Shown here one piece after another: positions 2,975-9,810 of a stretch of 10,027 nucleotides of DNA (the stretch's first letter is position 1; each line of letters starts with the position of its first letter). The notes under the pieces were generated by a model. That model saw only the letters and a list, made by a program, of their open reading frames with translations. It was not told where the DNA came from and made no database searches. The position numbers and the translations under genes were made by a program. Source of the stretch: a virus (taxonomy: Duplodnaviria > Heunggongvirae > Uroviricota > Caudoviricetes); IMG/VR virus record IMGVR_UViG_2541047945_000003; one strand, 5' to 3'.

Positions 2975-5900
2975 ATGGGTAAAGGCAGCAGTAAGGGGCA
3001 TACTCCGCGCGAAGCGAAGGACAACCTGAAGTCCACGCAGTTGCTGAGTGTGATCGATGCCATCAGCGAAGGGCCGGTTGAAGGTCCGGTGGATGGATTA
3101 AAAAGCGTGCTGCTGAACAGTACGCCAGTGCTGGACAGTGAGGGGAATACCAACATCTCCGGCGTCACGGTGGTGTTCCGGGCCGGTGAGCAGGAGCAGA
3201 CACCGCCGGAGGGATTTGAATCCTCCGGCTCCGAGACGGTGCTGGGTACGGAAGTGAAATACGACACGCCGATCACCCGGACCATCACGTCGGCAAACAT
3301 TGACCGACTGCGTTTTACCTTCGGCGTGCAGGCACTGGTGGAAACCACCTCAAAGGGGGACAGGAATCCGTCGGAAGTCCGCCTGCTGGTTCAGATACAG
3401 CGTAATGGTGGCTGGGTGACGGAAAAAGACATCACCATTAAGGGCAAAACCACCTCGCAGTATCTGGCCTCGGTGGTGGTGGGTAACCTGCCGCCGCGCC
3501 CGTTCAGTATCCGGATGCGCAGGATGACGCCGGACAGCACCACAGACCAGCTGCAGAACAAAACGCTCTGGTCGTCATACACCGAAATCATCGATGTGAA
3601 ACAGTGCTACCCGAACACGGCACTGGTCGGCGTGCAGGTGGACTCGGAGCAGTTCGGCAGCCAGCAGGTGAGCCGTAATTATCATCTGCGCGGGCGCATT
3701 CTGCAGGTGCCGTCGAACTATAACCCGCAGACGCGGCAATACAGCGGTATCTGGGACGGAACGTTTAAGCCAGCATACAGCAACAACATGGCCTGGTGTC
3801 TGTGGGATATGCTGACCCATCCGCGCTACGGCATGGGGAAACGTCTTGGTGCGGCGGATGTGGACAAATGGGCGCTGTATGTCATCGGCCAGCATTGCGA
3901 TCAGTCGGTGCCGGACGGTTTTGGCGGCACGGAGCCGCGCATCACCTGTAATGCGTACCTGACCACACAGCGCAAGACGTGGGATGTGCTCAGTGATTTC
4001 TGCTCGGCGATGCGCTGTATGCCGGTATGGAACGGGCAGACGCTGACGTTCGTGCAGGACCGACCGTCGGATAAGGTGTGGACCTATAACCGCAGTAATG
4101 TGGTGATGCCGGATGATGGTGCGCCGTTCCGCTACAGCTTCAGCGCCCTGAAGGACCGCCATAATGCCGTTGAGGTGAACTGGATTGACCCGAATAACGG
4201 CTGGGAGACGGCGACAGAGCTTGTGGAGGACACGCAGGCCATTGCCCGTTACGGTCGTAGCGTCACGAAGATGGATGCTTTTGGCTGTACCAGCCGGGGG
4301 CAGGCACATCGCGCCGGGCTGTGGCTGATTAAAACAGAACTGCTGGAAACGCAGACCGTGGACTTCAGCGTGGGTGCCGAAGGGCTTCGCCATGTACCGG
4401 GCGATGTCATTGAAATCTGCGATGATGACTATGCCGGTATCAGCACCGGCGGGCGCGTGCTGGCGGTAAACAGCCAGACCCGGACGCTGACGCTCGACCG
4501 TGAAATCACGCTGCCATCTTCCGGCACCACGCTGATAAGCCTGGTTGACGGGCAGGGGAGTCCGGTCAGCGTGGAGGTTCAGTCCGTCACCGACGGCGTG
4601 AAGGTAAAAGTGAGCCGTGTTCCTGACGGCGTTGCCGAGTACAGCGTGTGGGGGCTGAAGCTGCCGACGCTGCGCCAGCGCCTGTTCCGCTGTGTGAGTA
4701 TCCGTGAGAACGATGACGGTACGTATGCCATCACTGCCGTGCAGCATGTACCGGAGAAAGAAGCCATCGTGGATAACGGGGCGCACTTTGACGGTGACCA
4801 GAGCGGCACGGTGAATGGTGTCACGCCGCCAGCAGTGCAGCATCTGACCGCAGAAGTCACTGCAGACAGCGGGGAATACCAGGTGCTGGCGCGCTGGGAT
4901 ACGCCGAAGGTGGTGAAGGGGGTGAGCTTTATGCTTCGCCTGACCGTGGCAGCGGATGACGGCAGTGAGCGGCTGGTCAGCACGGCCCGGACGACGGAAA
5001 CCACATACCGCTTCACGCAACTGGCGCTGGGAAACTACAGGCTGACAGTCCGGGCGGCAAATGCCTGGGGGCAGCAGGGCGATCCGGCGTCGGTATCGTT
5101 CCGGATTGCCGCACCGGCAGCGCCATCTCGGATTGAGCTGACGCCGGGCTATTTTCAGATAACCGCCACGCCGCATCTTGCCGTTTATGATCCGACGGTA
5201 CAGTTTGAGTTCTGGTTCTCGGAAAAGCGGATTACCGATATCAGGCAGGTTGAAACCACAGCCCGCTATCTTGGCACGGCGCTGTACTGGATAGCTGCCA
5301 GTATCAATATTAAGCCGGGCCATGATTATTATTTTTACGTTCGCAGTGTGAACACCGTTGGCAAATCGGCATTCGTGGAGGCCGTCGGTCGGGCGAGCGA
5401 TGATGCGGAAGGTTACCTGGATTTTTTCAAAGGCCAGATAACCGAATCCCATCTCGGCAAGGAGCTGCTGGAAAAAGTCGAGCTGACGGAGGATAACGCC
5501 AGCAAACTGGAGGAGTTTTCGAAAGAGTGGAAGGACGCCAACGATAAATGGAATGCCATGTGGGGCGTCAAAATTGAGCAGACCAAAGACGGCAAACATT
5601 ATGTCGCGGGGCTTGGCCTCAGCATGGAGGATACGGAGGAAGGCAAACTGAGCCAGTTCCTGGTTGCCGCTAACCGTATCGCGTTTATTGACCCGGCAAA
5701 CGGGAATGAAACGCCGATGTTTGTGGCGCAGGGCAACCAGATATTCATGAACGAAGTGTTCCTGAAGTATCTGACGGCTCCCACCATTACCAGTGGCGGT
5801 AATCCTCCGGCATTTTCCCTGACACCGGACGGGCGGCTGACGGCGAGAAATGCTGATATCAGCGGTAACGTGAATGCGAACTCCGGGACGCTCAATAATG

Positions 5901-6388
5901 TCACGGTAAATGAAAACTGTACGATTAAGGGCATGCTGGAGGCGAACCAGGTCAGAGGTGACTTCGTTAAAACTGTATCCAAATCATTCCCGAAAAAGGC
6001 TGGTACGTGGGGTAACACGGAAACACCAAACGGGACGGTTACAGTCACCATTTACGATGATCATAACTTTGACCGCCAAATCATTATTCCGCCCATTATT
6101 TTTAACGGTGTGGCGTATGACGATCCGGGGAGCGGTAATAACCCGGGAGGTACGCGATACACGGGTTATGGTTTTGAAGTTCGCAAAAATGGCGTATTAA
6201 TCGCATCCAGAGAAACTAAAGGAGCCATTCCCGGTAGTTACAGTGCGGTTATTGATATGCCGAGTGGTGGTGGTAACGTCACTCTGGAGTTTAAGATTTT
6301 CCAGAAAGGCAATCAGGGCGCAGGTAACATCACAGACTGTACGGTGATTGTGACCAAAAAAGCTGCTTCCGGTATCAGTATCCGTTGA
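2975..6388 (+). CDS. J: Central tail fiber / host specificity protein J, with a divergent C-terminal receptor-binding region
   Basis: 1137-aa ORF preceded by AGGA 1 nt upstream of the ATG. The first ~975 residues ([34 protein letters not shown]...) match lambda gpJ closely from memory. The last ~160 residues (from about [14 protein letters not shown]... to ...[10 protein letters not shown]) do not match my recollection of the lambda J C-terminus. Confidence 0.93.
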
Positions 6389-6408
6389 AATATTTATAAC
6401 CCCAATAC

Positions 6409-6436
6409 GGGCGCCAGCAATGGCGCCTTTTTTATT
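6409..6436 (+). terminator. Rho-independent terminator-like hairpin between J and stf
   Basis: GGCGCC (6410-6415), loop AGCAAT, GGCGCC (6422-6427), followed directly by TTTTTTATTT. It lies 21 nt after the J stop. Confidence 0.6.
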
Positions 6437-6448
6437 TGTGGAGTGAGT

Positions 6449-8803
6449 ATGGCAGTACAGATTTCAGGTGTGCTGAAAGATGGTGCGGGAAAACCAATAC
6501 AGAACTGCACTATTCAACTGAAGGCAAAGCGTAACAGCACCACGGTACTGGTGAACACGGTGGCCTCTGAAAATCCGGATGAAGCCGGGCGTTACAGCAT
6601 GGATGTTGAGTATGGCCAGTACAACGTCACCCTGCTGGTTGAAGGTTTTCCGCCTTCACATGCCGGGACCATCACCGTGTATGAAGATTCTAAGCCGGGG
6701 ACGCTGAATGATTTTCTCGGTGCCATGACGGAAGAGGATGTCATGCCGGAGGCATTACGCCGTTTTGAGGCTATGGTGGAAGAAGCAGCACGTAACGCTG
6801 AAGCTGCCTCTCAGAGCGCAGCGGCGGCAAAGAAATCCGAAACTGCAGCGGCATCATCGAAGAACGCGGCGAAAACCTCAGAAACGAATGCAGCTAACAG
6901 CGCACAGGCGGCAGCGGCCTCGCAGACTGCATCGGCAAATTCCGCGACAGCAGCTAAAAAATCAGAAACCAACGCGAAAAACAGCGAGACAGCAGCAAAG
7001 ACGAGCGAAACCAACGCAAAGTCCAGCCAGACGGCAGCGAAAACCAGCGAAACGAATGCTAAAGCCAGTGAAACTGCGGCAAAAAACAGCCAGGCTGCAG
7101 CAGCTGAAAGCGAGAGCGCAGCAGCCGGTTCTGCGACTTCAGCAGCTGGATCAGCAACTGCTGCGGCTAACAGCCAGAAAGCTGCGAAGACGAGTGAAAC
7201 TAACGCAAAGTCCAGCCAGACGGCAGCGAAGACCAGCGAAACGAATGCCAAAGCCAGCGAAACTGCGGCAAAAAACAGTCAGGATGCAGCGGCCCAAAGC
7301 GAGAGTGCCGCAGCTGGTTCTGCAAGTGCGGCAGCTAATAGCCAAAAAGCTGCAAAAACCAGTGAAACTAACGCAAAGACGAGTGAAACAAAAGCAGCAG
7401 CCAGCGAGATAGAAGCAACGTCAGCCGCAACAAGAGCAGAGAATGCAGCCCGGATTGCAGAAGATGCCGCTGATCCTGCTTCAGTCCCTCCGCTTCCTGA
7501 TATCTGGCTACCCTTGAATGATTCTCTGGAAGCGATAACAGGGTATGCCCCGGGCTATAAAACAATAACCATCGGCAGTGATGAAATAACAATGCCTGTT
7601 AATGGCATATGCCAATTTAGCCGCGCTTCATCAGCAACGTATATTGATAAGTCCGGGCATATTACCGTGGCAGGGAATAACGTTCCTCGTTTTGAAAAAT
7701 ATGGTTTGCTGATAGAGAATCAGCGAACAAACATGTTCGTAAATAGTTTTAATCCTGATGCGTGGAATAAAAGCGGTGGTATATCTGTAACATCATCAAC
7801 AGATGAATTTGAGTTTAAATATGGACGTTTCACAGTAGGAAGTGAGATAGCAGGAACGACAACAGGGAGAAATATATGCACAGTTGCTGGTAATAAAGGC
7901 ATAGATGTGACTGGCGATGATCAGTACAGTAAAGGTCCGTATGTTACCGCGTCGTTCAGGGTAAGAAGTGATCTCAATGTTCGCGCACGTATCCGTTTTG
8001 AACGGTATAACTCGGAAGGATACACTTTCCTTTGTGACGCCTATTTGTCATTACAGACTCATGAACTACAAATTACGGGTGGTAATGCCCAGCTATTAAC
8101 AGCAAACTTTGAAATCGACCCTGGTAGTGGATGGATATATTTTCAGGCAACACTGAAATGTCTGCCAGAATGGGGAATGGTTGGTACGCAGCTGCAAATT
8201 GCAGCCGACAGAGCAGTGGGGGCTTTTGCAACAGGTGACTGGATAGAAGTAACCACCCCGCAATTCGAGTATGGTGCTTGTGCAACTTCCTTTATCATAA
8301 CGACAACAGAGCCAGCGACTCGTGCATCAGATTTATGTAAATTTCCGCTGATGAAAAATATGTATACCATGCCTTTTACGTTCATGGTGGAAGTCCATAA
8401 AAACTGGTTTATTTCTCATAATGCTGCACCGCGTGTCATTGATTCAGAAAATCACCAGTCCGGAGGCCCATTTATTATGGGGTTTGGTTCTTCTGGAACT
8501 ATCAGTCAGGATGGTTATTCGTATTGCGATATAGGCGGGGCTAACCGGCGTGTATATGAGTCATGCGGAGTAAGAGATCTCGTTATGGGATTCAGGGTTA
8601 AGGCTGACGGCATGACATGCTCATTTGCAAATAAGAATATAAGCACTGAAACCAAAACAGTATGGAAATATATTCGTGAAGCAGCCGTGATTCGTATCGG
8701 GGGGCAAACGACGACAGGATTACGACACCTTAATGGTCATATAAAAAACCTCCGTTTCTGGAACAGAGCATTGTCAGATACGCAGCTTAAGGAATACGTA
8801 TAA
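6449..8803 (+). CDS. stf: Side tail fiber protein (Stf-like): lambda-type N-terminal domain, repeat shaft, divergent C-terminal putative receptor-binding domain
   Basis: ATG 6449 with GGAG 5 nt upstream (the ORF track begins at an in-frame GTG at 6443). The N-terminus MAVQISGVLKDGAGKPIQNCTIQLKAKRNSTTVLVNTVASENPDEAGRYSMDVEYGQY... resembles the lambda Stf N-terminal domain from memory. The middle is an Ala/Lys/Ser/Glu/Thr-rich repeat region (KTSETNAK units). The C-terminal ~430 aa is lower-GC and ends ...IKNLRFWNRALSDTQLKEYV, which resembles the terminal strand of LamG/concanavalin-A-like jelly-roll domains. Confidence 0.85.
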   Translation: MAVQISGVLKDGAGKPIQNCTIQLKAKRNSTTVLVNTVASENPDEAGRYSMDVEYGQYNVTLLVEGFPPSHAGTITVYEDSKPGTLNDFLGAMTEEDVMPEALRRFEAMVEEAARNAEAASQSAAAAKKSETAAASSKNAAKTSETNAANSAQAAAASQTASANSATAAKKSETNAKNSETAAKTSETNAKSSQTAAKTSETNAKASETAAKNSQAAAAESESAAAGSATSAAGSATAAANSQKAAKTSETNAKSSQTAAKTSETNAKASETAAKNSQDAAAQSESAAAGSASAAANSQKAAKTSETNAKTSETKAAASEIEATSAATRAENAARIAEDAADPASVPPLPDIWLPLNDSLEAITGYAPGYKTITIGSDEITMPVNGICQFSRASSATYIDKSGHITVAGNNVPRFEKYGLLIENQRTNMFVNSFNPDAWNKSGGISVTSSTDEFEFKYGRFTVGSEIAGTTTGRNICTVAGNKGIDVTGDDQYSKGPYVTASFRVRSDLNVRARIRFERYNSEGYTFLCDAYLSLQTHELQITGGNAQLLTANFEIDPGSGWIYFQATLKCLPEWGMVGTQLQIAADRAVGAFATGDWIEVTTPQFEYGACATSFIITTTEPATRASDLCKFPLMKNMYTMPFTFMVEVHKNWFISHNAAPRVIDSENHQSGGPFIMGFGSSGTISQDGYSYCDIGGANRRVYESCGVRDLVMGFRVKADGMTCSFANKNISTETKTVWKYIREAAVIRIGGQTTTGLRHLNGHIKNLRFWNRALSDTQLKEYV
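6998..7354 (+). repeat. In-frame tandem duplication (~189-bp unit, two near-identical copies) inside the stf shaft, within a longer degenerate ~27-nt periodic region (~6820-7400)
   Basis: Copy A 6998-7186 and copy B 7187-7354 align almost base for base (aagacgag[c/t]gaaac[c/t]aacgcaaagtccagccagacggcagcgaa...ggttctgc). Copy B lacks about 21 nt near its 3' end. Protein level: KTSETNAKSSQTAAKTSETNAKASETAAKNSQ[A/D]AAA[E/Q]SESAAAGSA... occurs twice. Confidence 0.8.
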
Positions 8804-9072
8804 TGCGGGATATAACATTACGATTCGATAACAGAGAACAGTTTAACGCAATTGTATATGACAGTGGCCTGTTCAGTCTTGAAGAAGAAAATGGGGTTCT
8901 TGTTGATGTTATTGGCTGCATTATTGATTACGAGGAGCCAGAAAACGAAAGATGTACAGGCATTGATCGCGGTGGTTTTTTCGTAAACATGAGGATTGTT
9001 GATGGCAGTAAAAACATATCTTCTTTAATGCCTTTCATTACGACAGATCAGCATGTAAGGACATGGGCTTAA
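8803..9072 (+). CDS. Hypothetical protein (89 aa), start overlapping the stf stop; possible non-canonical fiber-associated factor or moron
   Basis: ATG 8803-8805 overlaps the stf TAA (TAATG), with AAGGA 9 nt upstream. AT-rich, acidic translation (MRDITLRFDNREQFNAIVYDSGLFSLEEENGVLVDVIGCIIDYEEPENER...). I recognise no family, and it does not resemble the canonical lambda Tfa as I recall it. Confidence 0.5.
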   Translation: MRDITLRFDNREQFNAIVYDSGLFSLEEENGVLVDVIGCIIDYEEPENERCTGIDRGGFFVNMRIVDGSKNISSLMPFITTDQHVRTWA

Positions 9073-9084
9073 TGGAGTAAGACA

Positions 9085-9810
9085 ATGGTTACAAAAACAG
9101 TAATTCCTGATGACATCAAAACGCTAAAATCCGATGTTAGTAAACTAAAAACTGATCAAGGAAGCTATGCAACAAAATCATATGTAGACAATAAAACAAC
9201 ATGGAATAGTTATTGCAATGTAATCTATGATCAAAAGGCATTGCCGACCACTGGAACTATATTTAGCGGTAAGATTCACTTGTCAAATAAGACTGGTGAA
9301 ACGGAAAACGCTTATAGTGATATATATACCAGAAAAAATATTGATGGTACTAAAGATACAATGACGAGGATCGTCACACATAACGGGACAAAAGGTATCT
9401 TTTGGGACTTTAGTGATCTTTACGGAGGAACTTTAATTTTCCCTGGCACTGCTGGTTATTTGAAAATGGGTAAATGCCTCATGTCCTATGGGGATCGTGT
9501 AGATAATGCCCTGATTAAATTTGATTATACAGACACACTACAGATCAAATATGCTAATCATGGTTCGACCATGACACTAAACACACAGGGAACCGCTCAC
9601 GCTGGCGTTACTGCTAAATTGTGGGGCAATTCTAGCCGTCCGGTTGTTTATGAAGTTGGTGTAGATGGTGGGGCTTTTATATTCTTCGGTCAAAAACAAA
9701 CAGATGACACATATGCATTTGCTGTTAATGGTGCATGTCAAGCGACCGCATTTAACCAGATAGACTGGCCCCCTGAATCACCAGACAACCAATATCACTT
9801 ATTTAAGTGA
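9085..9810 (+). CDS. Hypothetical protein (241 aa as read), 3' end fused to or truncated by IS2; native sequence ends at about codon 225
   Basis: ATG 9085 with GGAG 7 nt upstream. AT-rich ORF with an N-terminus ([31 protein letters not shown]) reminiscent of fibre-type proteins, then a Gly/Thr/Tyr-rich region. From nt 9761 the frame continues through the IS2 terminal repeat ([16 protein letters not shown]) to TGA 9808-9810, so the C-terminus is IS-derived. Confidence 0.55.

Follow-up and report, generated by a model that had tools for sequence, protein, structure and literature searches.

The window, by which is meant the whole stretch of DNA analysed here (10,027 nt), encodes a lambda-type side tail fibre, Stf, and its coiled-coil rod very probably carries an old tandem duplication of nine heptads and has been resized by unequal crossing-over and by heptad slippage. 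The copies are clearly recognizable at the nucleotide level, they occupy corresponding places in the shafts of many related loci, and among those relatives there are shafts with fewer units, and one with more, whose junction units are chimeras of the two copies.

The side fibre gene and its rod

Pfam profiles run on the encoded proteins identify the window as the distal tail module of a lambda-like prophage, in which the C-terminus of the tape-measure gene H is followed by M, L, K, I and J. The stf gene comes after J, as it does in the annotation of Escherichia phage PhiR11_1; lom, found in relatives, is missing here. The stf DNA is 100% identical to the annotated Stf coding sequence of PhiR11_1, whose start there is the ATG at 6449 in the window, and the open frame as such begins at a GTG, 6443 (6443-8803, 786 codons in the ORF list). 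The main features are as follows.

2975-6388: J, 1137 residues (Pfam)
6449-8803, + strand: stf, the side tail fibre gene, 784 aa from the ATG at 6449 (ORF list, PhiR11_1 match, PF08400, phrog_1419)
6449-6730, + strand: N-terminal collar domain of Stf, anchor of the fibre on the tail (phmmer match to PDB 9e7m/9mgh)
6785-7477, + strand: coiled-coil shaft, 33 unbroken heptads of the form A-[K/A]-x-S-[E/A/Q]-[T]-[A/N] (heptad layout, 21-nt periodicity, AF2)
7478-8803, + strand: distal Stf, presumably receptor-binding (NF048003, phrog_1419; weak Laminin_G_3)

At the N-terminus the assignment is straightforward, with PF08400, the prophage tail fibre N-terminal domain, matched at 6.1e-68 (227 bits, cut-off 26.6) and phmmer aligning residues 3-96 with a solved tail fiber protein chain of 94 residues (PDB 9e7m/9mgh, E 2.5e-49). 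The distal end is of another kind. Residues 423-628 match NF048003, a phage head spike fiber domain (48.2 bits, cut-off 36), the C-terminal part matches phrog_1419 at 1.7e-185, and Laminin_G_3 at the very C-terminus is a weak match that falls under its cut-off. Downstream lie a gene for an 89-aa protein (phrog_1361) and then that for a second fibre with a Peptidase_S74 domain; neither a gp37-like tip nor a downstream Tfa chaperone gene was found with distal-domain profiles and among the downstream genes. Of what marks a lambda-type Stf, the collar domain, the gene position and the long coiled-coil rod are thus present and the lambda-type distal tip is absent, and, going by these profile matches, Stf here belongs to the broader family that has the Stf N-terminus and carries a different distal module from that of lambda.

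Between the two ends is the tract that had first attracted attention. The earlier note had described a degenerate 27-nt periodicity over 6820-7400; the place was right, the extent was not, as the tract really runs from 6785 to 7477, and the period proves to be 21 nt, i.e., 7 residues, for mean self-identity of the shaft is 0.495 at multiples of 21 nt and, at multiples of 27 nt, 0.373, near the background of 0.36. Heptad phase is kept along the whole tract; 32 of the 33 heptads have Ala at position 1 and 29 have Ser at position 4. The richness in Ala, Lys, Ser, Glu and Thr that was also remarked on is real, as a count of composition gives A 36%, S 17%, T 12%, K 9.5% and E 8.7%. Searches of Pfam and NCBIfam gave no repeat family for the shaft itself.

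In lambda the corresponding structure is known. In the cryo-EM/ET work on Ur-lambda (PMC12617516) the side fibre is a trimer whose collar (gpStfN, 1-91) passes by way of a flexible linker, 92-101, into a proximal coiled coil, 102-393. Because of the lambda-like heptad pattern, the collar match, the Ur-lambda structure and a helical AF2 model, the tract can be read as the proximal coiled-coil rod of Stf, its trimeric state being predicted from homology with lambda. The rod is built of 7-residue repeats with the small residues Ala and Ser at both core positions. Modelled as a monomer by AF2, Stf residues 95-365 are helical over 97-343 except for one break at Gly-containing heptads, 227-235, where pLDDT is below 50 and the chain folds back. 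A hinge at residues 227-235 was considered and set aside, the fold-back being treated as an artefact of modelling a monomer; AlphaFold3 is reported to fold back full-length lambda Stf likewise. The length of such a rod follows from the rise of a coiled coil, ~0.15 nm per residue: 33 heptads would come to roughly 34 nm and nine heptads (63 residues) to roughly 9 nm.

The duplicated block and its age

Within the rod, nine heptads are followed by eight that are plainly their counterpart and then by the beginning of a further unit.

6995-7183, + strand: copy 1, 189 nt, nine heptads (Tandem Repeats Finder, MAFFT, heptad register; copy-1 diagnostic sites common to 79 two-copy loci)
7184-7351, + strand: copy 2, 168 nt, eight heptads, one heptad lost (alignment; copy-2 diagnostic sites)
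7352-7393, + strand: partial third unit, two heptads, AKTSETN AKTSETK (Tandem Repeats Finder row 6977-7396, heptad match)
7013-7041, + strand, and again at 7202-7230: longest exact block between the copies, 29 nt, within the crossover interval of relatives
7332/7333, + strand: point at which copy 2 has lost 21 nt, one heptad (alignment with locus L036)

Tandem Repeats Finder gives a period of 189 with 1.8 copies and 89% matches over 6980-7323, and, in a looser row, 2.2 copies over 6977-7396; the units as originally drawn, when aligned by MAFFT, agree in 89% of columns and need one gap, of 21 nt. In heptad register the copies lie head-to-tail in the same reading register and are identical at 148 of 168 nt (88%), with 20 substitutions and one 21-nt in-frame gap, and 7352-7372 is identical to the first heptad of copy 2 at 18 of 21 nt. 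The in-frame tandem duplication of ~189 bp that had been proposed is therefore where it was said to be, or essentially so, complete with its 21-nt indel, and the 88-89% from alignment is above the ~80% below which the proposal was to be given up, but ‘nearly identical’ is too strong for units that differ at 20 of 168 nt. The copy 2 of eight heptads is due to the deletion at 7332/7333 relative to L036, a locus with the C-terminal tail type and shaft end of the window but with a full copy 2 of nine heptads.

How old, then, is the duplication? It had been taken to be recent. Seventeen of the 20 substitutions that separate the copies are synonymous and at the third codon position, and three alter a residue, so at the protein level 53 of 56 aligned residues are identical, and it is this high amino-acid identity that would speak for a fresh expansion in this prophage lineage. 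The silent differences tell otherwise. By the Nei-Gojobori method dS between copy 1 and copy 2 is 0.68 and dN is 0.023 (ratio 0.03), and that dS exceeds the 0.08-0.32 seen when one unit is compared across phages. The sites that tell copy 1 from copy 2 are shared by 79 two-copy loci whose C-terminal domains differ, and copies group by position: identity across loci is 96.1% for copy 1 and 97.1% for copy 2, whereas copy 1 against copy 2 gives 91.8%, whether the two come from one locus or from different ones. Even the one-heptad deletion of copy 2 is found in 21 distinct nucleotide alleles. A very recent origin is thus highly improbable and that part of the earlier description has to be given up. 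Since copies are orthologous across the 79 loci and cross-copy identity is lower, the duplication is, to judge from these comparisons, older than the divergence of the alleles and than their spread among prophages with different C-terminal domains, and there appears to be little concerted evolution between the copies. The idea that the synonymous differences are spaced against recombination was also tried and rejected: differences placed at random leave a longest run of similar size (25.7 nt on average in simulations against the 29 nt observed, P(sim <= 29) = 0.79).

Could the second copy nevertheless be a product of the assembler, or could the copy number have been collapsed or expanded by it? 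The warning that such repeats are an assembly hazard has some substance for the family at large: draft contigs often end in copy 1, nearly every one of the 120 best database relatives is a partial protein, and many proteins of the family are cut short by a contig end within copy 1, among them those of clusters P0084, P0089, P0091 and P0120 (325-447 members each), with the genes of P0084 and P0089 confirmed to run to the last base of their contigs. For this window, however, the concern falls away. Over its 10,027 nt a single mismatch separates it from the complete chromosome of E. coli LC-1302-2020, the duplicated structure recurs there, in the independently sequenced phage PhiR11_1, in an IMG/VR contig and in 21 distinct alleles, and the 20 differing sites leave as the longest exact shared word one of 29 nt, which is less than the usual length of reads or of the k-mers used in assembly. 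Moreover, the broken contigs retain copy-1-specific sites to their end and genomes carry several related stf shafts (median 2, maximum 10), so that paralogy between prophages is at least as likely as the tandem repeat to be the cause of the breaks. Of 5,426 complete E. coli genomes, 1,408 have a match. That the copy number here is an artefact is a remote prospect indeed, though host-range typing that relies on stf will often meet truncated genes in short-read assemblies.

Repeats of this kind also invite the question of whether something is encoded in another frame or on the other strand. The mechanical ORF list does contain long ORFs at 6738-7412 (+) and 6811-7251 (-), and the lambda record annotates an antisense orf206b opposite orf-401 in the corresponding place. 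GCN-rich repeats, however, yield open frames from composition alone, and it is in the third codon positions of stf that changes have accumulated, not only between the copies, as given above, but also among alleles: one class has 79 variable sites, 53 of them at third positions, and the other has 145, 94 of them so placed. This third-position excess shows that the stf frame, rather than those alternative-frame or antisense ORFs, is the one under selection. No RNA family was found by Rfam anywhere in the 10,027-nt window, and coding of the repeat in another frame or strand is scarcely credible. Least credible of all is that the likeness of the two blocks is convergence forced by heptad composition instead of common descent, for though the whole tract is of low complexity and in-phase lags give 45-53% nucleotide identity everywhere, the best 135-nt window is 90.4% identical at lag 189 and no more than 70% at every other in-phase lag (best windows typically 55-66%), far above the repeat tract’s own background, and synonymous codon choices agree at most sites, for which convergence of the protein cannot account.

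Gain and loss of units

The earlier note had suggested that the repeats would be substrates for recombinational expansion or contraction and that copy number be compared among related prophages; natural variants support the former idea. Shafts were taken from 180 related loci in GenBank phages, IMG/VR and E. coli genomes, which reduce to 103 distinct nucleotide sequences: 2 with one unit, 96 with two, 1 with three and 4 with no complete unit. As the relatives were picked by similarity to two-, one- and three-copy queries, the allele frequencies are not population estimates, and two units are by far the commonest state in what is a biased sample. By shaft length the distinct sequences divide as follows.

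143 residues, 4 distinct sequences: short form without a complete unit
185 residues, 2 distinct sequences: one unit
235 residues, 21 distinct sequences: the form of the window, 9+8 heptads
241 residues, 1 distinct sequence: two units, copy 1 short by one heptad
242 residues, 1 distinct sequence: full 9+9 heptads, tail type of the window
248 residues, 73 distinct sequences: 9+9 heptads
311 residues, 1 distinct sequence: three units

Database proteins show more shaft lengths, 150-244, mostly whole heptads apart.

What distinguishes the one- and three-unit alleles is the make-up of their junction units, which were painted with the 22 sites that separate copy 1 from copy 2 in 9+9 alleles. The single unit of L002 (phage IdasGreatGrand) and of L178 is of copy-1 type at the first three sites and of copy-2 type thereafter. 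The middle unit of L047, the single IMG/VR contig behind the three-copy allele, 2541047862_000009, is, as assembled, of copy-2 type at the first three sites and of copy-1 type thereafter. All three switches map to nt 18-85 of the unit, and the longest exact blocks between copies, which measure 29 nt in the window and range over 18-68 nt in its relatives, sit in that interval. The chimeras of L002 and L178 on the one hand and L047 on the other are reciprocal, and so are the products expected from unequal crossing-over between misaligned units.

A simple course of events fits. Very probably a nine-heptad block (63 residues, 189 nt) was duplicated in tandem long ago, and the two-copy form then became the common allele. 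With the first ~135 nt of the units still ~90% identical, misaligned homologous recombination now and then takes out or adds a unit, while slippage between adjacent heptads leads to loss of single heptads; the allele of the window is the common two-copy form minus one heptad of copy 2. The mechanism is ordinary: this is a well-explained length polymorphism, by textbook unequal crossing-over. In the library of literature searched there was no paper describing the nine-heptad unit or the alleles with one, two and three copies of it, and nothing on PhiR11_1, on side fibres of ECOR lambdoid prophages or on heptad duplications in tail fibres.

For new biology the import is small, and the uses are practical. 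The alleles are a natural example of a lambda-type side fibre rod resized by whole heptads without loss of register, which is relevant to those who build Stf chimeras, and the repeat tract is one that misleads automatic annotation, as RefSeq splits an intact stf in some complete genomes. Gain or loss of a unit would shift the rod by about 9 nm and so change the reach of the receptor-binding end from the tail tip. Might more be at stake? It is unlikely that rod length is a selected trait tunable in steps, or that the conserved unit docks another virion protein. If the former, steps of about 9 nm (one unit) or about 1 nm (one heptad) would adjust how far the distal domain extends to the depth of the O-antigen or capsule layer of the host. 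As to docking, a dN/dS of about 0.03 is unusual for a ‘simple’ Ala/Ser coiled coil, and the second fibre encoded downstream would be one candidate partner.

Lambda, its relatives and other coding repeats

The nearest well-studied counterpart is lambda Stf itself (orf-401 in lambda PaPa), which has the homologous N-terminal collar domain (PDB 9e7m chain, PF08400), is encoded after J as here, and shows the same heptad pattern: of its 32 heptads, 29 have Ala at position 1 and 24 have Ser at position 4. Over the first ~470 nt of stf here lambda-type phages are 88-91% identical, but the heptad DNA of lambda is not alignable with stf of the window beyond about 6915 and, by inspection, the heptad layout of orf-401 has no 189-nt duplicated block. 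The distal parts differ too, a gp37-like tip in lambda and, here, a distal domain of head-spike-fibre type without a tfa gene.

Closer relatives do share the duplication. The stf genes of PhiR55_1 and PhiR47_1 are 96-97% identical to that of the window and both have 9+8 heptads, while the group of ev207, Tritos and HannyBb shares both copies as 9+9 heptads. With ev207, Tritos, HannyBb, PhiR63_1 and PhiR49_1, DNA similarity spans the N-terminal domain and both units and ends near 7336; past that point about two heptads of the ev207-type phages are still similar as protein and then the shaft end and distal domains are different. The 248-residue shaft carries many distal-domain lengths, and the shaft is, on the evidence of such alignments, a shared module joined to varied distal modules. 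Engineered Stf chimeras, as in phage-derived delivery particles, exploit this modularity of shaft and distal part.

There is also a weak match, E 3e-5, of residues 35-225 of a T5-like L-shaped tail fibre (PDB 8hqz chain d), whose N-terminal rod is rich in Ala, Ser, Glu and Lys, to the shaft, with high compositional bias. That fibre and lambda-type Stf are both side fibres attached via a collar, but the attachment protein and the distal domains differ, and the match appears to be compositional rather than a clear homology.

Tandem coding repeats resized by unequal crossing-over are familiar from elsewhere, streptococcal M proteins and the stalks of trimeric autotransporters among them. With such systems the Stf rod has in common its in-frame units, its alleles differing by whole units and its chimeric junction units. 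It differs in that its units are 12% diverged and the two-copy state strongly predominates, so the Stf array is fairly stable rather than hypervariable.

Shaft of the side tail fibre

Gly-containing heptads close each unit of the duplicated segment of the stf shaft. Copy 2 has AAGSASA; those of copy 1 read AAGSATS AAGSATA and are placed as follows.

7121-7162: Gly-containing heptads of copy 1 (Stf residues 227-240)

In the AlphaFold2 monomer model the helix is broken only at this first Gly site, with pLDDT <50 there; the site may or may not mark a real flexible point of the rod.

What is to be made of related shafts that do not keep to heptads? Those of five database proteins, P0081, P0077, P0085, P0083 and P0064 (lengths of 169, 180, 207, 218 and 244 residues), have an internal deletion that breaks the heptad register, and each was seen once only among the 120 proteins listed. 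These fibres may be functional, the coil accommodating a stutter, or they may be defective.

Treatment of stf in RefSeq

In both E. coli LC-1302-2020 and NR3736 the stf frame is unbroken, with 804 and 813 codons, respectively, from stop to stop. In RefSeq this intact frame is split, for both strains, into a truncated pseudogene and a separate CDS for a ‘phage head spike fiber domain-containing protein’, and so the entire heptad shaft is left without annotation.

6813-7591: stretch of the window affected by the RefSeq treatment of stf (8054-8832 of the related stf locus L092; also in locus L091)

Gene order around stf

The following lie at or beyond the 3′ end of stf.

8803-9072: 89-residue ORF, phrog_1361 (unknown function), overlapping the stf stop codon
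9761-10027: IS2-type insertion sequence (IS3 family), starting at 9761

A second tail fibre gene, starting at 9085, is broken by the IS2-type element from 9761 on. The product of its intact counterpart in Escherichia phage PhiR11_1 is 346 residues long, falls in phrog_4563 and carries a Peptidase_S74 chaperone domain. Similarity between the window and PhiR11_1 ends at 9760, and what lies beyond matches, in reverse orientation, an IS2 copy at another site in PhiR11_1.

The phrog_1361 ORF is kept at the same place 3′ of stf in every relative inspected, the position that in lambda is taken by the tfa chaperone gene, and its product might be a candidate assembly factor for the distal domain of this type of Stf. 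On the 5′ side, lom is absent from the J-stf interval (6389-6448), as it is in PhiR11_1 and ev207, the spacing being only ~60 nt in all three, whereas in lambda, PhiR55_1, PhiR47_1 and IdasGreatGrand lom sits between J and stf.
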